DNA from: Bacillota bacterium
Lineage (GTDB): Bacteria; Bacillota_I; Bacilli_A; RF39; UBA660
Direction: 5' to 3'
Assembly: GCA_015059405.1 (NCBI GenBank)
Contig: SVAL01000005.1
Coordinates: 34,016-98,015 of the forward strand
Length of the DNA stretch: 64,000 nt
Shown: piece by piece, positions 5,012-60,778 of the stretch
How positions within the stretch are numbered: position 1 is the first letter of the stretch
Layout of the letters: every line of letters starts with the position of its first letter
The notes under the pieces: generated by a model
What the model was told of the DNA's origin: nothing
Database searches by the model: none
What the model saw: only the letters and a program-made list of their open reading frames with translations
Position numbers and translations under genes: made by a program

Positions 5012-6370
5012 TTATTCAGTTGGTTTTACGATATTTAAAAGATTATCTTCTACTGGCTCTACTACTTCTGTTTGTGGAGCATTTGGTGTAGTTGAAACAG
5101 GAGCTTCTACAGTTGGTGCTTGAGTTGCGATTTCAAGAGGATTTGGTGCAACAGGTGTTGGTGTATCAACAACTGGAGTGTTTGGTGTAATTGCAACTGG
5201 AGTTTCTGGAGCTTGAATTGCAGCTTCAAGTGGGTTTGGTACAGTAGGTGTTGGTGTATCAACAACTGGAGTGTTTGGTGTAATTGCAACTGGAGTTTCT
5301 GGAGCTTGAATTGCAGCTTCAAGTGGGTTTTGTGTAGTAGATGTCTCAGGTGTATTAGTAACTACAGGTTCACTACTAACCGCTGGTATTTGTGCTACTG
5401 TTTCTGCCTCTGTTAATCCGCCAATTGTAGGAATAATTGCTTCTGGTATTTCTTCTGGTTTAAATTGTTGGTTAACAACTTTTTCTCTTGGTGTATCTTC
5501 AACTACTGAAGGTGTCAACTCACCGATAGTAGGTGGTGGTAGAGGATTAGGCATTGCAACAGGTATTGGAACTGCCATACCTTGCATTGGTTGTTGTTGA
5601 ACAACATCTTTTTTATATTTATCACTTAAATTTTTGTATGGATCAGGTTGTGTATTTGCTTGGTATTTTGTTGCTGTATCATAAACATCATCTACTTCAT
5701 GTAATGCAACGTAATCTTTATCAATATAGTGTACTCTTAACATTGGATTGATTAAGAATGTACCAATTGATAAGAAAGTTAAAATAGTGTTTACTTTTTC
5801 TAATGTCTCAACATTATCTTTTTTACTTTGGTCTAAACCAAATTGATTAGTACTGTAAGATGTAAGTGAAGTAAGACCACTAAGACTACTGCTACTATCA
5901 AAATCTTTTAATCCAGTAACATATGGGAATATCGCAGTAATTGCTATTATAAAAGCAGTTATATTTTGAAATTTACCATGTGCTGTATTAGATTGTGGTA
6001 TTTCGTATACCATTACAATTAAGAATGAAAATATTGTTATGTGGGACATGAAGTTTGATATTTCATAAAGACTACTTGCATCTTCTAATATTAATTGTAA
6101 TGCTGTTAACAATAAATTGACTAATCCAACAAAAGTAGCAATATATCCAACAACCCTTGCATTTCTATTTGCAATTACGTTTGCTGATCTTGAAAATAGA
6201 AAAGTCATTCCTAAAATCTCAACAGCAATTGTAAGCATATATATTGATGTTTTATCAGTAATACTTATATCGATTGCTCCTAATACTATTAAAGCTATAT
6301 ATAGTAATGATAAAATAAACATAACTATAAGAGCATTATAAATTTTTTTAAACATATCCATATTAAACAA
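5012..6370 (-). CDS. Polytopic membrane protein with a C-terminal Pro/Thr-rich tandem-repeat tail.
   Basis: 452 aa. The N-terminal 250 aa contain 6 or more TM helices. The C-terminal half is PT-rich with 31-aa repeats (PNPLEAAIQAPETPVAITPNTPVVDTPTPTV). Confidence 0.6.
   Translation of the reverse strand: MFNMDMFKKIYNALIVMFILSLLYIALIVLGAIDISITDKTSIYMLTIAVEILGMTFLFSRSANVIANRNARVVGYIATFVGLVNLLLTALQLILEDASSLYEISNFMSHITIFSFLIVMVYEIPQSNTAHGKFQNITAFIIAITAIFPYVTGLKDFDSSSSLSGLTSLTSYSTNQFGLDQSKKDNVETLEKVNTILTFLSIGTFLINPMLRVHYIDKDYVALHEVDDVYDTATKYQANTQPDPYKNLSDKYKKDVVQQQPMQGMAVPIPVAMPNPLPPPTIGELTPSVVEDTPREKVVNQQFKPEEIPEAIIPTIGGLTEAETVAQIPAVSSEPVVTNTPETSTTQNPLEAAIQAPETPVAITPNTPVVDTPTPTVPNPLEAAIQAPETPVAITPNTPVVDTPTPVAPNPLEIATQAPTVEAPVSTTPNAPQTEVVEPVEDNLLNIVKPTE
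5107..5330. repeat. About 2.5 copies of a 93-nt tandem repeat encoding the Pro/Thr repeats of the 5012-6370 gene.
   Basis: A near-identical 93-nt unit is visible directly in the sequence (…ggagcttgaattgcagcttcaagtgggtttggt…). Confidence 0.8.
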
Positions 6371-7204: not shown

Positions 7205-7760
7205 ATTAGCAATACTAGAAGGATTATTATTTGTAGTTGGTGATGATGGTCTTACTCTAAAACAAATTTGTGAGATTATGGAATTATCTTTAGAAGAAGG
7301 AAAAGATTTAATAATTGAATTAAAAAGAGTATATGATGATGAAAGTCATGGAATAAAGATTAATATTTTAGGTGATAGATTTAAGCTAAGTACTAAAAAA
7401 GAACATCGTGAATATTATCAAAAATTAATAGAGACACCTGAAAATAGTGTTTTATCACAAGCTGCTTTAGAGACTTTAGCAATAGTTGCTTATAATGAAC
7501 CGTTAACTAGAATGGAAGTAGACGAAATAAGAGGAGTAAATTCTCGAGATATGTTAAGAAAGTTAGTTGCAAAAGGACTTATAAAAGAAGAAGGAAGAAG
7601 TGAACTTCCCGGAAGACCAATTTTATATGCAACAACTAATGAGTTTTTAGATTATTTTGGTTTAGCAAGTAAAGAAGAATTACCTAAATTTGAAAAGAAA
7701 GTAGAAGAAATAGTAGATGATACAGATTTGTATCATTCTAAATACGTGGAAGAAGAATAG
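7197..7760 (+). CDS. scpB: Segregation and condensation protein B.
   Basis: MNKLAILEGLLFVVGDDGLTLKQI, the ScpB winged-helix N-terminus. I prefer the start at 7197 overlapping the scpA stop. The ORF track start at 7170 is probably too early. Confidence 0.85.
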   Translation: MNKLAILEGLLFVVGDDGLTLKQICEIMELSLEEGKDLIIELKRVYDDESHGIKINILGDRFKLSTKKEHREYYQKLIETPENSVLSQAALETLAIVAYNEPLTRMEVDEIRGVNSRDMLRKLVAKGLIKEEGRSELPGRPILYATTNEFLDYFGLASKEELPKFEKKVEEIVDDTDLYHSKYVEEE

Positions 7761-7763
7761 AAA

Positions 7764-7795
7764 AAGAAAGATTATAGATAATCTTTCTTTTTTTA
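7764..7795 (+). terminator. Rho-independent terminator of scpB.
   Basis: Hairpin gaaagattat-agat-aatctttc followed by T7. Confidence 0.6.
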
Positions 7796-8139
7796 GGAAA
7801 AATAATACTTAGAATTAATAATATAATTGGATACATTTGATAATCAGATGCTTTTCCTTCTAAAACAGGGGATAAGGAAGGGTGGTGATAGTTATGACAA
7901 AAAGAGAAATATCTCTATTTATTATAATTATTTTCCAATACGTAATAATCTTTATATTATTATTAAAATAAAAAAAGCATCTGCTCACTAAAGTGAGTTC
8001 AGATGCAAACCAGAAAGAGAATGCATTTGATATTCCCAAATCAAATGTATCCTTTTTATTTTATGAAGTTACCTTCATCTACATACATAATAACATATAA
8101 AAATAGCAGTGTAAACGTAAAAAGTATAAATGTAAAACC

Positions 8140-8167
8140 TTGACAAAAGACCGGGGGGGGGTATGAT
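8140..8167 (+). promoter_or_regulatory. Sigma-A-like promoter TTGACA-N16-TATGAT. The spacer contains a G9 homopolymer (8153-8161).
   Basis: TTGACA at 8140-8145 and TATGAT at 8162-8167. The 16-nt spacer is aaagacc followed by nine Gs. It lies 29 nt upstream of the pilin-like gene's ATG at 8196, which has RBS agaggagtg. Confidence 0.5.
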
Positions 8168-8195
8168 TTTAGTAGATAATAGAGGAGTGTGTCAA

Positions 8196-10307
8196 ATGAA
8201 GAATAAAAAAGGTTTTACATTAATAGAATTATTAGCTGTAATAGTAATACTAGGACTTTTAATGGCAATTGCGATTCCAAGTGTAACAAAGTATATAACA
8301 GAATCAAGAAAGAAAACAGTAGTTAGTACAATAGGAAACTATATAACAGCAATGGTAAATGAGGTAAATGATTTAACATATACATTTACTGAAGCTAATA
8401 TAATTTATGCAGTACCGATAGAATGTATAGCACTTGAAAGAGGAGGAACAAATCCATTAGGGAAATGGATGCAAGCAAATAATAGTTATTGGGCATATGT
8501 ACTTGTACAATATGATGATGAAACATCTAGTTACAGATATGGTTTTACTTTCAAAGATAGTGCAGGATATGGACTATATCCAACAGCACAATCAAAACTA
8601 AATGAACAAGGTAAACAAATTCAAACGGGTTTAGAATTAACTAGACCTAAAAATGGAAAAGTAACTACTATAACAGCAGTAGATAAATGGAATGGATTTG
8701 ATGTGGATAGTGCAACAAATTTAGTAGTATTAGAATCTACATTAGAAGGTGAAGTAGGGGATGGTAAAAAAACTTGTACTTTGTGCCAAAAAGGAGATAA
8801 CTATAACCAAGTGGAAGAAGAGAAATTAGATAATATTGATACGCCTCTTCATTTCGGTATACCTTATGAAAATATTGAAAATGGAATTAGTGAAGCTTAT
8901 ATTTTTCATGAGGATGGTTCTGCAGATTATTATTATGATTGCGAGTTAAGTTATTCAGGAACGGCGGGTGATTATAGATATTACGAAGGTTATATTGAGG
9001 ATACTCTATTTTATGATATTGTCTTTCAAATTTCAGAGGATAAAAAAAGTATTACAGACTTTTGGGATTTTGATTTTGTTTATACACTTAATCGAAGTTC
9101 GACTTGGTGTGAAACTGAAAACTCAACACTTAGAAGTGCCAAAAACTCAGTGGCTTTTTGGCAGTATAAAGACAAAATTAAAACAATTACATTTCAAGAT
9201 AGCATAAATATTCCAAATGGTATTGATGACAAGTACAAATGGGATGTATCAAAAACACAAAGCGGTACAGTAATGGCGTATATTACACCAAATTCTAGTA
9301 ATTCAGATTTTTATGATTTATATATTCAAGGTGACGGAAAAATATATGCCCCGTCAAATAGTTCAAATTTATTTAAAGATTTTAAATATTTAGATAGTAT
9401 TAATAATATAGAAGTGTTGGATACAAGTAAAGTTATTACAATGTCTTATATGTTTTATAATGCCGGATATAATAGTACTGCATTTACATTAGACTTAGGA
9501 AATAATTTTGATACAAGCAAAGTTACTAATATGTCTTATATGTTTTATAATACCGGATATAATAGTACTGCATTTACATTAGACTTAGGAAATAATTTTG
9601 ATACAAGCAAAGTTACTAATATGTCTGCTATGTTTTATTGTGCAGGTCGTAGCAGCACTGCATTTACATTAGAATTAGGAAATAATTTTGATACAAGCAA
9701 AGTTACTGATATGTCTTCTATGTTTTATTGTACAGGTCGTAGCAGCACTGCGTTTGTATTGAATTTAGGAGATAAATTTGATACAAGCAATGTAACTACT
9801 ATGTATCAAATGTTCAGCGATACAGGATATAATAGTACCATATTTACATTAAACTTAGGAAATAAATTTGATACAAGTAATGTAACAACTATGTATAAAA
9901 TGTTTCATCAGGTAGGTACTAAAAATCCAAATTTCACATTGGATTTGGGAGATAAATTTGATACAAGTAATGTAAAGAATATGTATGGGATGTTTCATAG
10001 TGTTGGAAGTGCTAGTACTAAATTTACATTAGATTTAGGTGATAAGTTTGATACTAGCAAAGTTACTAATATGGGATTTATGTTTATGCAAACAGGGAAT
10101 AAAAATCCAAATTTCACATTGAATTTAGGAAATAAATTTAATACAAGTAATGTAACGGAGATGAGGCAGATGTTTTATCTGACGGGAAGAAATAGTTTAT
10201 TATTTAGCCTTGATTGTAGTACTTGGAATGTTGAGAAAGTAACTAGTTATAGTAATTTCAATTATGGTGTAGAAACTAAAGTAACTCCACCAATATGGAA
10301 ACATTAA
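8196..10307 (+). CDS. Modular type IV pilin. It has a class III signal peptide, a conserved pilin domain of about 205 aa, and C-terminal DUF285-type (BspA/Mycoplasma-like) 30-aa tandem repeats.
   Basis: MKNKKG|FTLIELLAVIVILGLLMAIAIP prepilin motif (Phe+1, Glu+5). The conserved Cys pair is C(IECIAL) and C(KTCTLC). About 9 repeats of LGNNFDTSKVTNMSYMFYNTGYNSTAFTLD follow. I prefer the start at 8196 over 8163. Confidence 0.8.
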   Translation: MKNKKGFTLIELLAVIVILGLLMAIAIPSVTKYITESRKKTVVSTIGNYITAMVNEVNDLTYTFTEANIIYAVPIECIALERGGTNPLGKWMQANNSYWAYVLVQYDDETSSYRYGFTFKDSAGYGLYPTAQSKLNEQGKQIQTGLELTRPKNGKVTTITAVDKWNGFDVDSATNLVVLESTLEGEVGDGKKTCTLCQKGDNYNQVEEEKLDNIDTPLHFGIPYENIENGISEAYIFHEDGSADYYYDCELSYSGTAGDYRYYEGYIEDTLFYDIVFQISEDKKSITDFWDFDFVYTLNRSSTWCETENSTLRSAKNSVAFWQYKDKIKTITFQDSINIPNGIDDKYKWDVSKTQSGTVMAYITPNSSNSDFYDLYIQGDGKIYAPSNSSNLFKDFKYLDSINNIEVLDTSKVITMSYMFYNAGYNSTAFTLDLGNNFDTSKVTNMSYMFYNTGYNSTAFTLDLGNNFDTSKVTNMSAMFYCAGRSSTAFTLELGNNFDTSKVTDMSSMFYCTGRSSTAFVLNLGDKFDTSNVTTMYQMFSDTGYNSTIFTLNLGNKFDTSNVTTMYKMFHQVGTKNPNFTLDLGDKFDTSNVKNMYGMFHSVGSASTKFTLDLGDKFDTSKVTNMGFMFMQTGNKNPNFTLNLGNKFNTSNVTEMRQMFYLTGRNSLLFSLDCSTWNVEKVTSYSNFNYGVETKVTPPIWKH
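9400..10210. repeat. About 9 copies of a 90-nt tandem repeat within the pilin-like gene. Three copies are near-identical at nucleotide level.
   Basis: The unit gacttaggaaataattttgatacaagcaaagttactaatatgtct... recurs with period 90 (9481, 9571, 9661 ...). Confidence 0.8.
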
Positions 10308-10308
10308 A

Positions 10309-10332
10309 ATATTTTAAGGAGACTTTAAGTCT
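10309..10332 (+). terminator. Rho-independent terminator.
   Basis: ggagactt-taa-agtctc followed by T6. Confidence 0.6.
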
Positions 10333-10382
10333 CTTTTTTGTATTTGTGTTTGTGATATGTTATAATTTTTTTGAGGTAGAGT

Positions 10383-12827: not shown

Positions 12828-12900
12828 GTTCATCTATTCTTTTTTCTTGTGTTTTTTAGTTTTTTGTGGTAAAATATACGCAATTAATGGGGTGTTTGGT

Positions 12901-14787
12901 ATGATAGGTGTTTTTGATTTAGAAGTTTTATTAAAGAGTTATGGAATCGATTATGAGAAAGTTCTTGAAAATAATGAGAAGATTTTGTCATTAGGAGAAT
13001 ATTCTGATATTAAGAAAGTACTTAATTATTTAATTTTAGAACTTGGTCTTCCTACTAAGAATATAGAAAAGTGTCCTAGTGTTTTATATTTTAATGTTAA
13101 TGCTGTACGTACTAATTATGAGTTTTTAAGTAGTACTGGTATTACTATGGATAATGTTAATAATTGTTTACATATTCTTAGTACTGATCCTAACGATTTA
13201 AGAGATTGTTATGAATATATTTTAAATAATTACGGATTTGAAATTTTAAATAAACAAACATCTATTTTAAAGTGGCCTCTTAGTAAGATTAAGAGATATG
13301 AAGAATTATTTGGAAGTTTTTTTGATAAAAAAGTTTTAATGTCAGCGATATTTTATCAAAATGATGAAGATGAAGTTTATAAGATTATTAATACTTGTCT
13401 TAAATATAATTTAGATTTTGAAGGTAATATGTTTAAAAGCACTGCTTCTGATATAGAGAAGATTGTTGTGATATGTCAGAAATATAATATTTTACCTAGT
13501 GGTAGTATTTTTAGAAAGACACCTTTAGAATTAGAAAAAATAATAGAAATATGTAATCGCGAAAAAATTAAAGTAACAGGTAGTGTTTTTCATAGAAATG
13601 CTGATGAGTTAGAAGATTTATTAATTGTTTGTAAAAAATATAAGATTAAACCAGAAGGATCTGTATTTTGTAAAAAGGCAAATGAATTAGAAGATATTGT
13701 TTTACTTTGTAAGAAACATGGTATTAAAGCAAAGGGTACTATACTTAATAAAAGTATTTCAGATATAGAAACTATAATAGATTTATGTAATAAGTATAAT
13801 GTTAAAATAAGTAGTTCTGTTTTTCAAATGAATGCTTTAGAAGTAGAAGATTTATTTATTACTTGTAAGAAATATGGTATTAAATTAGTTGGTACAGTTT
13901 TTAATCGTAATGCTAGTGAGATTGAAGGAATTGTTTCTTTGTGTAAGAAACATAATATAAAATTATCTGGAACTGTATTTAAACAAAGTGATAAGGAATT
14001 AGAAAGAGTAATAGATGTATGTTTAAAAAATAATATTAAGTTAGAAGGTATTGTTTTTGCTAAAAGTAGTTTTGAAATAGAAAGAATAGTAGATATTTGT
14101 AAAAAATACAATATAGAATTAAAGAAAAATGTCTTTTTAAGTAATTCTAAAGATTTAGAAAAAGTAATTAAAATATGTTTAAAACATAATATTAAACCAG
14201 AGGGGAATGTTTTTAGAAGAAAACCTAAAGAGTTAGAAAGAATCATTCTTCTTTGTAAGAAATATAATATTACTCCAAAAGGAACTGTTTTTAGTAAAAG
14301 TGCTGATGAGATAAAGAAAATTATAGATATATGTTTAAAATATGGTATTAAATTAGAAGGTGCTGTATTTAGAAAAAGTGCTAAAGAAGTAGAAAAGATA
14401 GTTAAAGTTTGTGAGAAGTACAATATTAGTTTAAATGGGGGAATATTTTATCGAAGTGCTGATGAAATTGAAAAGAGTAGTGAATACTTAATTAATAATT
14501 ATGGTACTTGTTATGTTAAAAATTTAATTGTATGTAAACCATTTGAACGAATAAAGGAAGTTTTTCCATACTTAGATAGTTTAGGTGTTTTACCAGTTGT
14601 TGTTAAAAGCCCTGGAATACTTGAAATAAAATTAGATGAAATTAAAGAAAGAGAAACAGTTATTAAAAATTTAAATATGCCAATAGTAGATAATCGTGGT
14701 ATGTTTAATACTTTGTTTTCTTTAAGTAGAAATAGATATTATAAAAGAATTGAAAAATTAGGATATCAAAAAGTATTAAGTAAATAG
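12901..14787 (+). CDS. Tandem-repeat protein. About 15 copies of a 26-aa repeat are flanked by mTERF-like helical motifs. Function unknown.
   Basis: The repeat is xGxVFxKxAxELExIVxLCKKYNIKx with period 78 nt, spanning 13420-14460. The N- and C-terminal regions contain Pro-anchored helical motifs resembling mTERF. The mTERF assignment is inferred. Confidence 0.55.
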   Translation: MIGVFDLEVLLKSYGIDYEKVLENNEKILSLGEYSDIKKVLNYLILELGLPTKNIEKCPSVLYFNVNAVRTNYEFLSSTGITMDNVNNCLHILSTDPNDLRDCYEYILNNYGFEILNKQTSILKWPLSKIKRYEELFGSFFDKKVLMSAIFYQNDEDEVYKIINTCLKYNLDFEGNMFKSTASDIEKIVVICQKYNILPSGSIFRKTPLELEKIIEICNREKIKVTGSVFHRNADELEDLLIVCKKYKIKPEGSVFCKKANELEDIVLLCKKHGIKAKGTILNKSISDIETIIDLCNKYNVKISSSVFQMNALEVEDLFITCKKYGIKLVGTVFNRNASEIEGIVSLCKKHNIKLSGTVFKQSDKELERVIDVCLKNNIKLEGIVFAKSSFEIERIVDICKKYNIELKKNVFLSNSKDLEKVIKICLKHNIKPEGNVFRRKPKELERIILLCKKYNITPKGTVFSKSADEIKKIIDICLKYGIKLEGAVFRKSAKEVEKIVKVCEKYNISLNGGIFYRSADEIEKSSEYLINNYGTCYVKNLIVCKPFERIKEVFPYLDSLGVLPVVVKSPGILEIKLDEIKERETVIKNLNMPIVDNRGMFNTLFSLSRNRYYKRIEKLGYQKVLSK

Positions 14788-23517: not shown

Positions 23518-24492
23518 ATGAAGAATAAAAAAGGTTTTACACTTATTGAATTACTTGCGGTAATAGTAATACTAGGACTATTAATGGCAATAGCAATACC
23601 AAGTGTAACAAAGTATATTACACAATCAAGAAAGAAAACAGTAGTATCAACTATTGGTAATTACATATCAGCTGCAGTAAACGAAGTAAATGATTTAACA
23701 TACACATTTACTGGAAATAATACAGTTTATGCAGTGCCAATTGAATGTATTGCTCTAGAAAGAGGTGGGACAAATCCGTTTGGACACTGGTTACATGCAA
23801 ATGATGCATACTGGGCATATGTGCTTGTACAATATGACGATGAAACATCATCATATACATATGGATATACATTCAAAGATAGTGCAGGATATGGACTATA
23901 TCCGACTTCTCAAGCAAAATTAAATGAACAAGGAAAACAAATACAAACAGGTCTTTCTTTAACAAGACCAGCAAATGGAAAAGTTACAACAATAACATCA
24001 ACAACTAACTGGAGTGGATTTAGTGTAGATTCATCAACTGATTTAGTAGTACTTGCGGCAATGAAAGAAGGAGAAGTTGGAAATGGTAAAACTACATGTA
24101 CACTTCTACAAAAAGATGATAATTATGCTTCTATAGAACAAGATAGAATTAATGATCCAAACTATGGCGGAAACATAGGTGGAGGAAGTAATAATAATAA
24201 CGATGGTTCTAGTGGTAGTGATGATGATAATGTAGTTGTTACACCATTATTAACATTTAAAATTGATGGAAAAAGTTATAGTTATGAAGATGGCATGACT
24301 TTAACACAATGGATAAATAGTAGTTATAATACTGATAATTTTATTGTAGAAGATGACACTGTTTATACTTCTGACAAATCAAAAAAAATATCAGGTAAAA
24401 ATGGTTCTAGTAAGATTGAAAAAGATGGTAGTTATACTTTAACTAATGTATATACTGGTGGTGGCGTTTCTCATGTTGGTGGAAGTAACTAA
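23518..24492 (+). CDS. Modular type IV pilin, paralog 2. Conserved pilin domain, a Gly/Asn/Ser-rich linker and a short beta-rich C-terminal domain.
   Basis: Same prepilin motif. About 85% identical to the 8196 gene over roughly 205 aa. It diverges after GDNY (GGNIGGGSNNNNDGSSGSDDDN...). Confidence 0.8.
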   Translation: MKNKKGFTLIELLAVIVILGLLMAIAIPSVTKYITQSRKKTVVSTIGNYISAAVNEVNDLTYTFTGNNTVYAVPIECIALERGGTNPFGHWLHANDAYWAYVLVQYDDETSSYTYGYTFKDSAGYGLYPTSQAKLNEQGKQIQTGLSLTRPANGKVTTITSTTNWSGFSVDSSTDLVVLAAMKEGEVGNGKTTCTLLQKDDNYASIEQDRINDPNYGGNIGGGSNNNNDGSSGSDDDNVVVTPLLTFKIDGKSYSYEDGMTLTQWINSSYNTDNFIVEDDTVYTSDKSKKISGKNGSSKIEKDGSYTLTNVYTGGGVSHVGGSN

Positions 24493-36795: not shown

Positions 36796-36872
36796 TTTTT
36801 TGTGGTATAAAGTAAAATCTTGATATATGCGAATACGAATGATAAAATTATATCTAGAATAGGAATGGTGTT
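36796..36872 (+). promoter_or_regulatory. Conserved promoter and leader of pilin-like paralog 3 (TTGATA-N17-TAAAAT). It is duplicated almost exactly at 39192-39268.
   Basis: A 77-nt block is identical to the block upstream of the next paralog except for 3 mismatches. ttgata-tatgcgaatacgaatga-taaaat. Confidence 0.5.
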
Positions 36873-39134
36873 ATGAAGGAAAATAAAGGTTTTACATTAA
36901 TAGAATTACTGGCTGTAATAGTAATACTTGGTTTACTTATGGCAATAGCAATACCAAGTGTTACAAAATATATTACTGAATCTAGAAAAAAGACTTTAAC
37001 TACAACGGTAGGTAATTATATAAGTGCACTTGTTAATGAAGTTAACGATCTTTCTTATATATTTACTGATGCTAATACAATTTACGCAGTACCAATAGAG
37101 TGTATATCACTTGAAAGGGGTGGAACAGATCCTTTTGGATATTGGTATCAAGCAAATGATGCATATTTTGCATATGTACTTGTACAATATGATGATGTTA
37201 ATTCTAAGTACATTTATGGATTTACATTTAAAGATAGTGCTGGTTATGGATTGTATCCAACTATACAAGGAAATATAGATGAAAATGGTAAGCAAGTTAA
37301 AACAGGATATGATTTAAATAGACCAAAGACAGGGGAACTTACTTCTTTAACTGGTTTAGCTAAATGGCAAGAGTCAGGGTTTAAAGTAGATTCTTCGACT
37401 TATTTACAAGTTTTAGAAGCAACTAGTGAAGGCACTATAGGAGATGGAATATCAACCTGTACTTTATGTCAAAAAGGTGATAATTATGCTAAAGTAGAAG
37501 AAGACAAAATTACATGTAACTCGAATAAAGATCCTAGTTGTGATAGTACTCCTGGGATTTTAACAGGGAATGGTAAGCAAAACGACCCTTATTTGATAGA
37601 ATCTATGGAAGATTTAGTAGCTTTTGCTAATATTATTAATAATAAAAAATACGAGACTGGTTTTTATACTCCTATTATTTTTGAAGGTAGAAAAGTTTGG
37701 TGTAATTTTTATGTGGAATTAGCTAAAAACTTGGATTTTAAAGATCCGTCTTCATATGTTAATTCTAATACAAAAGAATTTGGGGATGTTAATAATAATG
37801 GAATTGTTGAACCTTTGATTGTAGAATTGAATTCAGGGGATGGATTCCCAACAATTAATTCAAATAACGATAATGAATTGAGGTTAGTCTTTGATGGAAA
37901 AAATCATTATTTAAAGAATTATAATTATAATATTGTTAATACTGATGCATCTAAGGTTGTTAACTTATCGTTATTTGGTGAGTTTGATGGAAGTTTTTAT
38001 AGTACTAATATAGCTAATTTAGCTTTGAAAGATGTTAACTTTTTTGTAGATACTGCAGGAGATGCTTATATAAGCCCTGTTATTAAAGAGATTAAGTCTT
38101 ATTATACATATCAATTATCTAATATAAGTGTTACAGGAAAAATTCAAGCTAAGTGTGGAGGGGCTTGTAATGTAGGAGGAATGGCTTATTCAATATTTAC
38201 TTATGGTAATGGTGCTGATGATGCTGTAAATAAAATAAATGTAAATTTAGATATAGATGTTTCTGGTAATAATGTTGTTGTTGGTGGTATTGCTAGTAGG
38301 TCTTCTAATTTAGGATATTATATTTTAGATTCTAATTTTACTGGTGATATTAATGTAAAAGCAACTAATGAGGCTTATGTTGGTGGTATTAATGCTACTT
38401 CTATTTATTTTAAATCAGTAAATTCATCTGTTAGTTCTGATATTCATGTGGAAACTAAATCGGGTGAAGTTTATGGGATTGGTAAAGGTACTATTTATAA
38501 TAGTTTTTATAAGGGTGATATGTATGTAAAATCATATACGCCTCTTAATATGGCTGGTTTAGGTAGAGATAATGTATATAATTCGTATGCAATTGGGGAT
38601 ATAATTGTTGATGCTGAATATAGATATAATTTTCCAAAAATAGGAGGTTTAACATCTTCTGGTCAAGTATTTGATTCATATTATATTGGAAATGTTTCTT
38701 ATAATACTAATACAAGTTATGGTGGTGGGGGACCGACTGTTTTATTAGGTTTATTAAGTGGTGGAAATTCTACTTTTAATTCTTTTTCAAGAGGAAAGAT
38801 TACTAATACTCAACAAACAACGTATAGAACTTTTTTTGGAATTTTAAGTCCTCATGATACGGATAGAGCAGCACCTGAAATTGTTAATAGTTATTATGGA
38901 GAAGATAGCTCATATACTGGAAATGCTCCTTGTTATTATGGTGGAGAGAAAGTAACAATTAATAATTTGAAAAATTCTAATTGGTATATAAACAGTTTGA
39001 AACTAGATAATAATTGGGTGTTAAAAGATGGTTATTATCCATTGATTAATAGATGTAATTTTGATTCTAGTACTTCTACTTGTGTTGCTACTACTGAACT
39101 TTTACCTAAACAAGATTGGGTTAAGGTGAATTGA
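36873..39134 (+). CDS. Modular type IV pilin, paralog 3, with a C-terminal GLUG-motif domain.
   Basis: Same prepilin and pilin domain. After GDNY comes ...GNGKQNDPYLIESMEDLVAFANI, then repeated VGGI/GGIAS GLUG-like motifs. Confidence 0.8.
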   Translation: MKENKGFTLIELLAVIVILGLLMAIAIPSVTKYITESRKKTLTTTVGNYISALVNEVNDLSYIFTDANTIYAVPIECISLERGGTDPFGYWYQANDAYFAYVLVQYDDVNSKYIYGFTFKDSAGYGLYPTIQGNIDENGKQVKTGYDLNRPKTGELTSLTGLAKWQESGFKVDSSTYLQVLEATSEGTIGDGISTCTLCQKGDNYAKVEEDKITCNSNKDPSCDSTPGILTGNGKQNDPYLIESMEDLVAFANIINNKKYETGFYTPIIFEGRKVWCNFYVELAKNLDFKDPSSYVNSNTKEFGDVNNNGIVEPLIVELNSGDGFPTINSNNDNELRLVFDGKNHYLKNYNYNIVNTDASKVVNLSLFGEFDGSFYSTNIANLALKDVNFFVDTAGDAYISPVIKEIKSYYTYQLSNISVTGKIQAKCGGACNVGGMAYSIFTYGNGADDAVNKINVNLDIDVSGNNVVVGGIASRSSNLGYYILDSNFTGDINVKATNEAYVGGINATSIYFKSVNSSVSSDIHVETKSGEVYGIGKGTIYNSFYKGDMYVKSYTPLNMAGLGRDNVYNSYAIGDIIVDAEYRYNFPKIGGLTSSGQVFDSYYIGNVSYNTNTSYGGGGPTVLLGLLSGGNSTFNSFSRGKITNTQQTTYRTFFGILSPHDTDRAAPEIVNSYYGEDSSYTGNAPCYYGGEKVTINNLKNSNWYINSLKLDNNWVLKDGYYPLINRCNFDSSTSTCVATTELLPKQDWVKVN

Positions 39135-39191: not shown

Positions 39192-39268
39192 TTTTTTGTG
39201 GTACAAAGTAAAATCTTGATATATGTGAATACGAATGATAAAATTATATCTAGAATAGGAATGGTATT
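39192..39268 (+). promoter_or_regulatory. Second copy of the conserved promoter and leader, for paralog 4.
   Basis: See 36796-36872. Confidence 0.5.
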
Positions 39269-40549
39269 ATGAAGAAAAATAAAGGTTTTACATTAATAGA
39301 ATTACTAGCTGTAATAGTAATACTTGGTTTACTTATGGCAATAGCAATACCAAGTGTTACAAAATATATTACTGAATCTAGAAAAAAGACTGTTACATCA
39401 ACAATAGGTAATTATATAACAGCCATGGTAAATGAAGTAAATGATTTAACTTATACATTTACTGATGCGAATACTATTTATGCAGTACCAATTGAGTGTA
39501 TTGCGTTAGAACGAGGTGGTACTAATCCATTTGGTGCATGGTATCAAGCCAATGATAGTTACTGGGCATATGTTTTAGTTCAATATGATGATGAAACTTC
39601 ATCATATAGATATGGATATACCTTTAAGGATAGTGCTGGATATGGATTATATCCAACAGCGCAGTCTAAGTTAAATGAAAGTGGAAAACAAATCCAAACT
39701 GGACTTAATTTAAAGAGACCAGAAACTGGTAAAGTAACAACTATAACAGCAGTAGATAACTGGAATGGATTTGGAGTAAATAGTTCTACTGATTTAGTAG
39801 TATTAGTTGCTGAAAGTGAAGGAAATATTGGAGATGGAATAAATACATGTACATTACACCAAAAAGGAGATAATTATTCACAGGTAGAAGAAAATGTTCT
39901 TCCTCCTAAAAATGAACCAGACGAACCAACTCCTCCTATAGAAGAAATACCTGATGATATTCCAGAAGAAACTCCTCCTCAAGATGATTCTACTATTATT
40001 TTATCTAGTTGTACTGGAACTGGTACAAAAGTTGGCAATATGATATCTTGTGGTAATGAAAAATTTTATATAATTGAAAGTAACGAAGAAACAATTACTA
40101 TGTTATCTAGGTATATGATTACTAAAGATTTAAATAATCCTGTGCAAACGACTACTTTTAGTACAATTAAATTTGCTAATTCTAATTATTGGAGTTATAA
40201 TGTATCGAAGTATCCTGCATATGTTTATAATGAAAAATCAAATTTATATCCTTATGTTGAAGCATATGAAAATTATTTAAAAATTAATTTTAATCTGAAT
40301 ACTGCTTCTGCTAGTTTAATTAGTTATGAGCAACTAGTTGCTTTAGGTTGTAAAAAAACAGGTTTTACTTGTAATGGCTCTTCTTATAGTAGTTGGTTAA
40401 GACCTATTTCTGGATATTATTGGACTGGAAGTGCTGACACTAAATCTACCTTGTTTTATGTAAATGAGGGTGGAGGATTTTTGAGCCATAGTACAGCAAG
40501 TGGTATAAGACCGATAGTGACAGTTAATAAAGAACAAATAAAATTTTAA
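39269..40549 (+). CDS. Modular type IV pilin, paralog 4, with a Pro/Glu-rich linker and an uncharacterised C-terminal domain.
   Basis: Same prepilin and pilin domain. Linker PPKNEPDEPTPPIEEIPDDIPEETPPQDD, then a globular domain of about 190 aa with 4 Cys. Confidence 0.8.
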   Translation: MKKNKGFTLIELLAVIVILGLLMAIAIPSVTKYITESRKKTVTSTIGNYITAMVNEVNDLTYTFTDANTIYAVPIECIALERGGTNPFGAWYQANDSYWAYVLVQYDDETSSYRYGYTFKDSAGYGLYPTAQSKLNESGKQIQTGLNLKRPETGKVTTITAVDNWNGFGVNSSTDLVVLVAESEGNIGDGINTCTLHQKGDNYSQVEENVLPPKNEPDEPTPPIEEIPDDIPEETPPQDDSTIILSSCTGTGTKVGNMISCGNEKFYIIESNEETITMLSRYMITKDLNNPVQTTTFSTIKFANSNYWSYNVSKYPAYVYNEKSNLYPYVEAYENYLKINFNLNTASASLISYEQLVALGCKKTGFTCNGSSYSSWLRPISGYYWTGSADTKSTLFYVNEGGGFLSHSTASGIRPIVTVNKEQIKF

Positions 40550-59641: not shown

Positions 59642-59718
59642 GGGCGATTAGCTCAGTTGGTTAGAGCACCTGCCTTACAAGCAGGGGGTCATAGGTTCGA
59701 GTCCTATATCGCCCACCA
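59642..59718 (+). tRNA. tRNA-Val (anticodon TAC).
   Basis: Hand-folded cloverleaf. Acceptor gggcgat/atcgccc, anticodon loop cttacaa, TPsiC ggttcgagtcc, encoded CCA. Confidence 0.85.
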
Positions 59719-59724
59719 TTAAGT

Positions 59725-59800
59725 GCCGAAATAGCTCAATTGGTAGAGCAATTGATTTGTAATCAATAGGTTACGGGTTCAAGTCCTGTTTTCGGCACCA
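59725..59800 (+). tRNA. tRNA-Thr (anticodon TGT).
   Basis: Acceptor gccgaaa/tttcggc, anticodon stem attga/tcaat with loop tttgtaa, CCA encoded. Confidence 0.8.
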
Positions 59801-59807
59801 TTTATTT

Positions 59808-59891
59808 GGAGAGGTAGCGAAGTGGCTAAACGCGGCAGACTGTAAATCTGTTCCTTCGGGTTCGATGGTTCGAATCCATCTCTCTCCACCA
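59808..59891 (+). tRNA. tRNA-Tyr (anticodon GTA), long variable arm.
   Basis: Acceptor ggagagg/tctctcc, anticodon loop ctgtaaa, long variable arm, CCA encoded. Confidence 0.85.
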
Positions 59892-59897
59892 CTTGAT

Positions 59898-59972
59898 TGC
59901 CTCGTAGCCAAGCGGTAAGGCATCAGACTTTGACTCTGACATGCGCTAGTTCGAATCTAGCCGAGGCAGCCA
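59898..59972 (+). tRNA. tRNA-Gln (anticodon TTG).
   Basis: U1:A72 acceptor (tgcctcg/cgaggca), anticodon loop ctttgac, CCA encoded. Confidence 0.8.
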
Positions 59973-59979
59973 TATATAT

Positions 59980-60055
59980 GTTCCGTTAGCTCAGCAGGTA
60001 GAGCATTTGACTTTTAATCAAAGGGTCTGGAGTTCGAATCTCCAACGGGACACCA
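59980..60055 (+). tRNA. tRNA-Lys (anticodon TTT).
   Basis: Acceptor gttccgt/acgggac, anticodon loop cttttaa, CCA encoded. Confidence 0.85.
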
Positions 60056-60142
60056 TTTTTTGTGAAAAAACTCATTGAGTTTTTGATATAGATGTCTGAA
60101 AAGACTTGATTGTTAAGTTAAAATACGATACAATCTAAATAT

Positions 60143-60231
60143 GCCTGAGTGGCGGAATAGGTAGACGCACAGGACTTAAAATCCTGCGAGATTCAACCCT
60201 CGTGCCGGTTCAAGTCCGGCCTTAGGCACCA
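60143..60231 (+). tRNA. tRNA-Leu (anticodon TAA), long variable arm.
   Basis: Acceptor gcctgag/cttaggc, anticodon loop cttaaaa, long variable arm, CCA encoded. Confidence 0.85.
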
Positions 60232-60239
60232 ATTATTAT

Positions 60240-60332
60240 GGAGGAATACCCAAGTCTGGTTGAAGGGACCGGTCTTGAAAACCGGGAGGTCGTGAGAGCG
60301 GCGCAGGGGTTCGAATCCCTTTTCCTCCGCCA
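60240..60332 (+). tRNA. tRNA-Ser (anticodon TGA), long variable arm.
   Basis: Acceptor ggaggaa/ttcctcc, anticodon loop cttgaaa, long variable arm, CCA encoded. Confidence 0.85.
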
Positions 60333-60340
60333 TTAGATAT

Positions 60341-60417
<77 letters not shown>

Positions 60418-60425
60418 ATTAATGT

Positions 60426-60501
60426 GGTCTCGTAGTGCAGGGGTTAACACGTCTGCCTGTCACGCAGAAGATCGCGGGTTCAATTCCCGTCGAGACCGCC
60501 A
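60426..60501 (+). tRNA. tRNA-Asp (anticodon GTC).
   Basis: Acceptor ggtctcg/cgagacc, anticodon loop ctgtcac, CCA encoded. Confidence 0.85.
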
Positions 60502-60504
60502 TAT

Positions 60505-60580
<76 letters not shown>

Positions 60581-60620
60581 TTTTTTTAATAAGTAATAAC
60601 GATCATCTGGTCGTAATCAT

Positions 60621-60697
60621 GCGCTCGTAGCTCAGCTGGATAGAGTGTTTGGCTACGAACCAAAAGGTCAGGGGTTCGAATCCCTTCGAGCGCACCA
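60621..60697 (+). tRNA. tRNA-Arg (anticodon ACG).
   Basis: Acceptor gcgctcg/cgagcgc, anticodon loop ctacgaa, CCA encoded. Confidence 0.85.
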
Positions 60698-60701
60698 TAA
60701 T

Positions 60702-60778
60702 CGAGAAGTGGCTCAATTTGGTAGAGCACCTGGTTTGGGACCAGGTGGTTGCAGGTTCAAATCCTGTCTTCTCGACCA
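60702..60778 (+). tRNA. tRNA-Pro (anticodon TGG).
   Basis: C1:G72 acceptor (cgagaag/cttctcg) typical of bacterial tRNA-Pro. Anticodon loop tttggga, CCA encoded. Confidence 0.8.

Follow-up and report, generated by a model that had tools for sequence, protein, structure and literature searches.

Within a 64,000-nt stretch of contig SVAL01000005.1 from a Bacillota bacterium (GenBank assembly GCA_015059405.1; this whole stretch is referred to below as the window), a run of nine G residues (G9) was found inside the promoter spacer of a gene whose 703-amino-acid (aa) product combines a prepilin-type signal with PARCEL/DUF285 repeats. This tract is probably a slipped-strand switch, in which the gain or loss of a G would alter the spacing of the promoter. 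Such a switch had been proposed in a first-pass annotation of the window, and the in silico checks agree with it: the promoter cassette is conserved in front of scattered paralogous genes, tract-less paralogues have promoters with 17-nt spacers, and tract lengths of G8, G9, and G10 occur among the copies.

Anatomy of the promoter and its G tract

Every coordinate that the first-pass annotation gave for this promoter was confirmed. On the forward strand, a -35 hexamer, TTGACA (8140 to 8145), and a -10 hexamer, TATGAT (8162 to 8167), are separated by a 16-nt spacer consisting of a fixed part, aaagacc (8146 to 8152), followed by the G9 homopolymer (8153 to 8161), which is the variable part; other copies and assemblies have G8, G9, or G10. 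The -35 hexamer is invariant in the 15 listed copies and reads TTGATA in homologous tract-less (type-B) paralogues, the fixed part of the spacer is invariant in all copies, and the -10 hexamer is TAAGAT at one related locus (locus B, below). Upstream, a proximal TGTAAAAcc box (8131 to 8139, forward strand) abuts the -35 hexamer and is conserved in all type-A copies; its GTAAAA[T/C]C form is common to the type-B promoters. A distal TGTAAA box (8110 to 8115, forward strand) lies 30 to 31 nt 5′ of the -35 hexamer, marks the point where homology between paralogous cassettes starts, and is invariant in all aligned copies. It could be a regulator site, an UP-like site, or the -35 hexamer of a minus-strand promoter. 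Downstream, the -10 hexamer ends 29 nt before the ATG at 8196, and the leader and 5′ untranslated region (8168 to 8195, forward strand), which contains the ribosome-binding site (RBS) AGGAG at 8183 to 8187, is nearly invariant between loci. Transcription would start near 8174.

The tract is exceptional in its surroundings. The first-pass annotation had put the GC content at about 26% and considered a G9 run improbable by chance; the measured GC content of the window is 26.3%, and the expected number of G runs of 9 nt or longer is 0.008 under an independent and identically distributed model and 0.009 under a first-order Markov model. G9 is the sole G or C run of 6 nt or longer in the 64 kb (the runners-up are G5 and C5), and the A or T runs of 8 nt or longer are all ordinary, mostly terminator tails. 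What was found is thus a homopolymer of about 7 nt or longer located inside a -35/-10 spacer, the arrangement by which repeat-mediated transcriptional phase variation is recognized.

A conserved cassette precedes scattered paralogous genes

Related loci were gathered by exact-protein look-ups in public assemblies (JGI, ENA, and NCBI); for loci A and B, about 15 and about 13 further similar contigs, respectively, lie outside the comparison. The cassette, tgtaaaa[c/t]cTTGACAaaagacc-Gn-TA[T/A]GAT...AGGAG...ATG, precedes at least seven paralogous genes in differing contexts. Locus A, that of the window, has the order scpA-scpB, the gene, a 296-aa product, and HlyIII (G9 in the window, L003, and L005; G8 in L004), and locus A′ has the same downstream genes in another metagenome-assembled genome (MAG) (L100; G9). 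Locus B consists of ruvB-queA, a 484-aa product, and GHL10 (G9 in L090, L092, and L093; G10 in L091; G8 in L094), and locus C of cotE, a 555-aa product, and rpsP (L088 and L089; G9). At locus D are queH, a 740-aa product, and a metallo-beta-lactamase-fold protein (Lactamase_B) (L006; G8), at locus E are Fic and a 495-aa product (L095 to L097; G8), and at locus F a 564-aa product is adjoined by TadE-like and ParA/CpaE-like genes (L098; G9). Loci A, B, C, and E were found together in the same samples, and A′ and F in one MAG, GCA_052843105.1. The first-pass annotation had described a single switched gene. Its reading stands for the gene in the window, which is, however, one copy among the members of a family.

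The cassette has changed far less than the genes that follow it. Homology between loci runs from the distal TGTAAA box through the ATG, and over the 56 non-coding bases of the cassette (tract excluded) the loci show 0.029 differences per site, compared to 0.305 differences per site, about tenfold more, at third codon positions in the 210 nt next to it. This reflects purifying selection on the cassette and not recent gene conversion. In addition, a terminator-like hairpin with a T run lies 35 to 125 nt 5′ of the -35 hexamer at all seven loci, and therefore the cassette must supply the promoter. In the window this hairpin is at 8015 to 8065 on the forward strand (-13.4 kcal/mol) and is predicted to insulate the cassette from upstream transcription; another terminator-like hairpin with a T run follows the gene at 10316 to 10336 (forward strand).

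The assignment of the two hexamers is fixed by homology, because tract-less type-B promoters align with them. These promoters, located at 36820 to 36848 and 39216 to 39244 of the window, in L007 and L099, and at the gene starting at 23518, read GTAAAA[T/C]CTTGA[T/C]A and have a spacer of exactly 17 nt, a -10 hexamer of TAAAAT or TAGAAT, and a homologous leader. A spacing of 17 nt, which corresponds to G10, is therefore indicated as the normal spacing of the family. The two window paralogues with promoters at 36820 to 36848 and 39216 to 39244 share a conserved cassette of their own, TTGATA-17-TGaTAAAAT.

Scans with the cassette pattern gave 0 matches in the GTDB species representatives, 0 in viral contigs, and 0 in the JGI metagenome collection, where one chance match in a high-GC contig was later obtained. 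The samples bearing these loci evidently lie outside those collections.

Tract length differs between otherwise identical copies

The tract is not invariant across assemblies, and one-G differences occur amid otherwise identical flanks. The first-pass annotation had suggested that the spacing would shift between 15, 16, and 17 nt; all three spacings are present among the copies, as G8, G9, and G10. The cleanest case is at locus B, where the sole difference between L090 and L091 in 4455 bp is one extra G (G9 versus G10), and where the tract lies mid-contig (contigs of ∼49 kb and ∼27 kb) between locus-specific unique flanks. In the same way, one G fewer is the sole difference between L090 and L094 in 3010 bp and, at locus A, between the window and L004 in 3671 bp. 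The evidence for length polymorphism is thus strongest at a paralogous copy of the cassette, locus B.

It is very improbable that the tract or its length differences are artefacts of sequencing or assembly. Such an explanation would draw on the contigs that end at the cassette (L001, L004, and L094), on a cluster of substitutions around the tract in L001, and on L002 and L099, where other 5′ ends are attached to the gene body. However, contigs break at the cassette because it and the N-terminal coding region, common to the paralogues, are repeated in the genome. At the homologous position, the tract is found in independent assemblies from JGI, ENA, and NCBI and in seven loci, and the G9 and G10 of locus B were both read far from contig ends. 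An artefact is excluded for the tract itself, though not for every length call.

The irregular contigs just mentioned deserve description in their own right. In L001 (positions 63 to 115, equivalent to 8138 to 8190 of the window), 10 of the 11 differences over 5233 bp cluster around the tract without a change in length: G9 has become G8A, all five C's at 8138 to 8152 are replaced, and the -10 hexamer and the RBS are weakened. Mutagenesis of A residues like that of diversity-generating retroelements was considered and rejected, since bases other than A are also changed, the affected region does not code for protein, and there was no sign of a template repeat. More likely, the changes come from an error at the contig tip or from a patch of another paralogue's sequence. 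In L002 (1 to 205) and L099 (1 to 1660), the gene body of locus A is joined to a different 5′ end with a tract-less promoter, and in L099 also to a different upstream gene (a glycosyltransferase). The switch-over points fall in the N-terminal coding sequence common to paralogues, and the mosaics reflect either promoter swapping by recombination or chimeric assembly.

A proposed switch of promoter spacing

We propose a sigma-A-type promoter whose spacer varies in length through its G tract and which would be in use and would, by itself, drive the monocistronic gene. Slipped-strand mispairing at replication would add or remove one G, in a frequent and reversible manner, and would set the -35/-10 distance to 15 nt (G8), 16 nt (G9), or 17 nt (G10). 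These 1-nt steps would span the range over which sigma-A promoters run from poor to optimal, and tract length would in this way alter transcription. Because the tract-less paralogue promoters use 17 nt, full activity is predicted for G10, reduced activity for G9, the state of the window, and little or none for G8. Since the cassette stands before scattered genes, each of them would switch independently. This would lead to mixed surface repertoires within a population, to which changes of repeat number inside the gene may add size variation.

Several points weigh against this proposal. First, hexamer pairs that match the consensus as well as TTGACA/TATGAT, which a consensus scan scores at 11/12, are common: there are 9 in the window compared to 6.4 ± 2.7 in Markov simulations. 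Because an 11/12 match is not significant in this AT-rich DNA, the promoter call rests on position and conservation. Second, the invariant aaagacc and leader exceed the needs of a simple spacing switch, which hints at an additional constraint. Third, the solid observations at locus A are of G9, in two assemblies, and G8 occurs there at contig tips only. L004 and L094 begin 16 and 12 nt from the tract, and their G8 calls are less secure because the contig ends lie beside the tract, inside the genomic repeat; the G8 of L001 likewise lies 78 nt from a contig end. L003, from a 64.9-kb contig, shows no difference from the window in 5145 bp and for this reason may be the same sequence and non-independent. 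Fourth, when 80 more distant pilin-like loci from the GTDB species representatives were inspected, a G or C run of 7 nt or longer turned up near the gene at a single locus, L060, whose G9 is differently arranged; the G-tract device is therefore lineage-restricted. Finally, any dependence of expression on tract length is purely inferred.

The invariance of the cassette is also what would be expected if the G tract were a fixed functional element, such as part of a regulator site or of a sequence-specific spacer, and if changes of ±1 were neutral or mildly deleterious slippage noise. Under this explanation the aaagacc, the TGTAAA boxes, and the leader would all be held constant together with the tract, and G9 is indeed found in most copies. 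However, lengths of 8 to 10 correspond to spacings of 15 to 17 nt, exactly the functional range, tract length is the sole polymorphism across several kilobases, and the consensus at locus E is G8 in three samples. Tract-less paralogues, moreover, appear to function with ordinary 17-nt spacers. We consider a fixed element unlikely, and the spacing switch is the preferred explanation.

On a wider scale, this switch may belong to a contingency system that extends over the whole genome of a commensal, spore-forming gut Firmicute. In such a system, several scattered genes for PARCEL proteins with prepilin-type signals, each with its own G-tract promoter and with the cassette under purifying selection, would be switched independently to give combinatorial surface repertoires, possibly with a common regulator acting on the TGTAAA boxes or the leader, and promoter swapping (as in L002 and L099) and repeat-number variation would add further diversity. 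We put this forward tentatively, as a possibility with somewhat less than even chances.

An upstream element and possible transcription from the minus strand

An element at 7840 to 8090 of the window, 5′ of the cassette, is conserved only at loci A, A′, D, and F. It contains a small hydrophobic open reading frame (ORF) of 25 aa (MTKREISLFIIIIFQYVIIFILLLK; 7894 to 7971, forward strand), which in other copies shows hydrophobic-for-hydrophobic substitutions. This is followed by a hairpin at 7977 to 8006, which reads as a terminator on the minus strand (with a T7 tail), and then by the forward-strand terminator-like hairpin at 8015 to 8065. A conserved promoter-like site, TTTACA-17-TGnTATTAT, lies on the minus strand at 8115 to 8087. 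The layout resembles a type I toxin-antitoxin pair, that is, a small membrane peptide with a convergent antisense RNA. The element at 7840 to 8090 had no Rfam or NCBIfam match and no covariation support; at the Rfam gathering threshold, only tRNAs were detected, and nothing credible was found at 7700 to 8300.

These features raise the question of whether the tract belongs to a minus-strand transcript that would start in the C9 run, be antisense to the small ORF at 7894 to 7971, and end at the hairpin at 7977 to 8006 with its T7 tail. Its promoter would consist of TTGACA (8195 to 8190), 18 nt, and TAAAAT (8171 to 8166), an 11/12 match on the minus strand. The inner stem of the terminator hairpin varies between copies with pairing kept, and the small ORF and hairpins are conserved in four loci. 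On the other hand, locus B has a degenerate form (TTAAAT) of the putative -10 hexamer, and the cassette occurs at loci B, C, and E without the small ORF or the minus-strand terminator. The better-placed extended -10 promoter at 8115 to 8087 could also make the RNA without the tract, and the lack of covariation support and of an Rfam family speaks against it as well. Altogether, such a role for the tract is quite improbable.

The gene and its product

The gene spans 8196 to 10307 on the forward strand. Its longest ORF, however, opens at an ATG at 8163, immediately 3′ of the tract, and several database proteins are called from there. If they were correct, the G run would be an RBS or coding context for a protein starting MILVDNRGVCQMKNKK..., an explanation to which we give almost no weight. 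The start at 8163 was rejected because locus B has TAAGAT at this position, and hence no ATG, while retaining the cassette. What is conserved in the extension is the nucleotide sequence, not the codons; the ATG at 8196 has a canonical AGGAG 8 nt ahead of it, and all of the paralogues start with MK.NKGFTL. At least nine protein clusters (90% identity) bear the mis-called prefix MILVDN[RK]GVCQM. Judged from the sequence, the true start is the ATG at 8196, preceded by the AGGAG at 8183 to 8187.

From this start, the protein is predicted to have a prepilin-type signal, a long alpha1 helix, a beta-rich region that includes a lipocalin-like barrel, and DUF285/PARCEL repeats. The N terminus, MKNKKG|FTLIELL, has a short basic leader ending in G, with F at +1 and E at +5, i.e., a GFxxxE motif. 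It matches PF07963 (N_methyl; 4.9e-9, 35.8 bits versus a cut-off of 21.2) and TIGR02532 (32 bits versus 16.3), and the repeats match PF03382 (DUF285; 7.1e-55, 184 bits versus 25) and TIGR02167 (the PARCEL repeat model; 93.6 bits versus 30). Residues 1 to 62 align to the alpha1 helix of solved pilins, and a structure model has a helix at residues 9 to 58. The first-pass annotation had called the protein a DUF285 pilin; the prepilin-type signal, the alpha1 helix, and the DUF285 assignment are borne out by these matches, whereas a pilin head fold was not confirmed, and fold searches found none. By family assignment, the prepilin-type signal and the DUF285/PARCEL matches both being above cut-off, the product would be surface exposed, as a surface or host-interaction protein. 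No prepilin peptidase or pilus machinery was found among the scanned ORFs of the window, the part of the genome that was searched.

The PARCEL/DUF285 repeat array (9420 to 10073, forward strand) consists of 7.3 copies of a 90-bp (30-aa) unit, and copy number differs between assemblies. A good example of this is L005, which has exactly one 90-bp unit fewer than the window and shows no other difference from it (ORF products of 684 aa versus 714 aa). This change in repeat number amounts to size variation of the protein.

Three more genes in the window (23518 to 24492, 36873 to 39134, and 39269 to 40549, all on the forward strand) encode a near-identical prepilin-type N terminus of about 45 aa followed by different C-terminal parts without a Pfam domain. 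The prepilin-type signal seems to serve as a general export or display tag of a large scattered family.

Other features of the window and of a distant locus

The single distant pilin-like locus with a long G run, L060 (2257 to 2510; uncultured Bacilli MAG, CAKPHO010000004.1), has a G9 5′ of the gene in an arrangement unrelated to that of the cassette. The order is a promoter, a 19-codon leader ORF (MVKDVNINLAQNLIWGGVI) that contains the G9, a strong terminator hairpin, an RBS, and the gene. This arrangement may be a frameshift-sensitive attenuator.

Elsewhere in the window, a 646-aa ORF (12847 to 14787, forward strand) is made up of repeats of about 35 aa (...KYNIKL.G.VF...E.E.I...C.K...); its Pfam matches are sub-threshold and spurious. 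A 452-aa membrane protein (5012 to 6370, minus strand) contains two copies of a Pro/Thr-rich tandem repeat, NPLEAAIQAPETPVAITPNTPVVDTPTP, in its C-terminal part and matches no Pfam family. Twelve tRNA genes are clustered at 59642 to 60775 (forward strand). The organism is a spore-former: the window encodes SpoVAD and a sigma factor, and a related locus encodes CotE. Its closest relatives in GTDB are MAGs of uncultured Bacilli and Erysipelotrichaceae that come from the guts of goats, sheep, and other hosts. The JGI sample numbers of the contigs compared here did not occur in a study of goat-faeces enrichments (PMC8007473).

Comparison with known phase-variable systems

The first-pass annotation had described the proposed switch as the classic mechanism of Neisseria and Haemophilus surface-protein genes, and the arrangement does match porA and hifA/B (PMC3899988, PMC2562373). 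More generally, porA, hifA/B, fim2/3, vlp, and Vmm are all established examples of switching by promoter repeats (PMC3899988, PMC2562373, PMC10502178). The closest in form is porA of Neisseria meningitidis, which likewise has a poly-G tract in the -35/-10 spacer of a surface-protein gene and in which one G gained or lost alters the transcript level (PMC3899988, PMC2562373). However, porA is a single gene of a Gram-negative pathogen and its switching was proved by experiment, whereas the cassette described here precedes a gene family in a low-GC spore-forming Firmicute known from metagenomes. In Haemophilus influenzae, a promoter-spacer repeat controls the fimbrial genes hifA and hifB from overlapping divergent promoters (PMC3899988). 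The likeness here is that a divergent, promoter-like site on the minus strand overlaps the -10 hexamer; the hifA/hifB repeat is TA and lies within the spacers of both promoters, whereas here the tract is downstream of the putative minus-strand -10 hexamer.

Bordetella pertussis fim2 and fim3 resemble the present case in being pilus-type subunit genes at separate sites, each with its own promoter homopolymer (poly-C), and differ from the window gene in pilus class. Their C tract sits between the site of the activator (BvgA) and the -10 hexamer. Small indels in it shift expression between high and low (PMC2562373).

Among the Mollicutes, Mycoplasma hyorhinis vlp (poly-A) and M. mycoides Vmm (a TA repeat in the spacer) also rely on slippage in promoter repeats. 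The vlp genes form a multigene surface family whose members are switched independently, and Vlp size varies via internal repeats (PMC10502178), a parallel to the 90-bp repeat difference between assemblies found here. The products of vlp and Vmm, however, are lipoproteins of wall-less bacteria with A or TA repeats, compared to a prepilin-type signal, a G repeat, and scattered genes here. In Mycoplasma agalactiae, G tracts of up to G13 lie 5′ of every member of the spma family and were called unusual by the authors (PMC2824730). Like the present family, spma encodes surface proteins in a low-GC genome of a ruminant-associated bacterium, but the proteins are unrelated and the position of the spma tract relative to -35 and -10 hexamers is undefined, whereas here homology to the tract-less paralogues locates the tract within the spacer. 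"Candidatus Mycoplasma girerdii" has a large BspA-like family, in which metagenomic reads directly reveal variants of repeat length (PMC5476646). BspA-like is the NCBI label of the window protein too; in "Ca. M. girerdii," however, dinucleotide repeats in or near genes lead to frameshift and truncation and do not affect promoter spacing.

Significance

Most documented cases of repeat-driven phase variation come from Gram-negative mucosal pathogens and Mollicutes, and the switches known to us in gut commensals and clostridia are mostly invertible DNA segments. Searches of the literature revealed neither a homopolymer switch in a promoter spacer of Clostridia nor a link between DUF285 proteins and prepilin-type signals. 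The mechanism proposed here is of a well-known kind, and its host is a little-studied bacterial group. These loci also have a practical effect, in that they break assemblies and mislead gene callers, which often place the start at the ATG right after the tract. If the proposal is true, the short signature TTGACAAAAGACC-Gn-TA[T/A]GAT would let metagenomic reads reveal switching directly, and an uncultured, spore-forming, low-GC Firmicute would be using the same contingency-locus strategy on a family of adhesin-like proteins.
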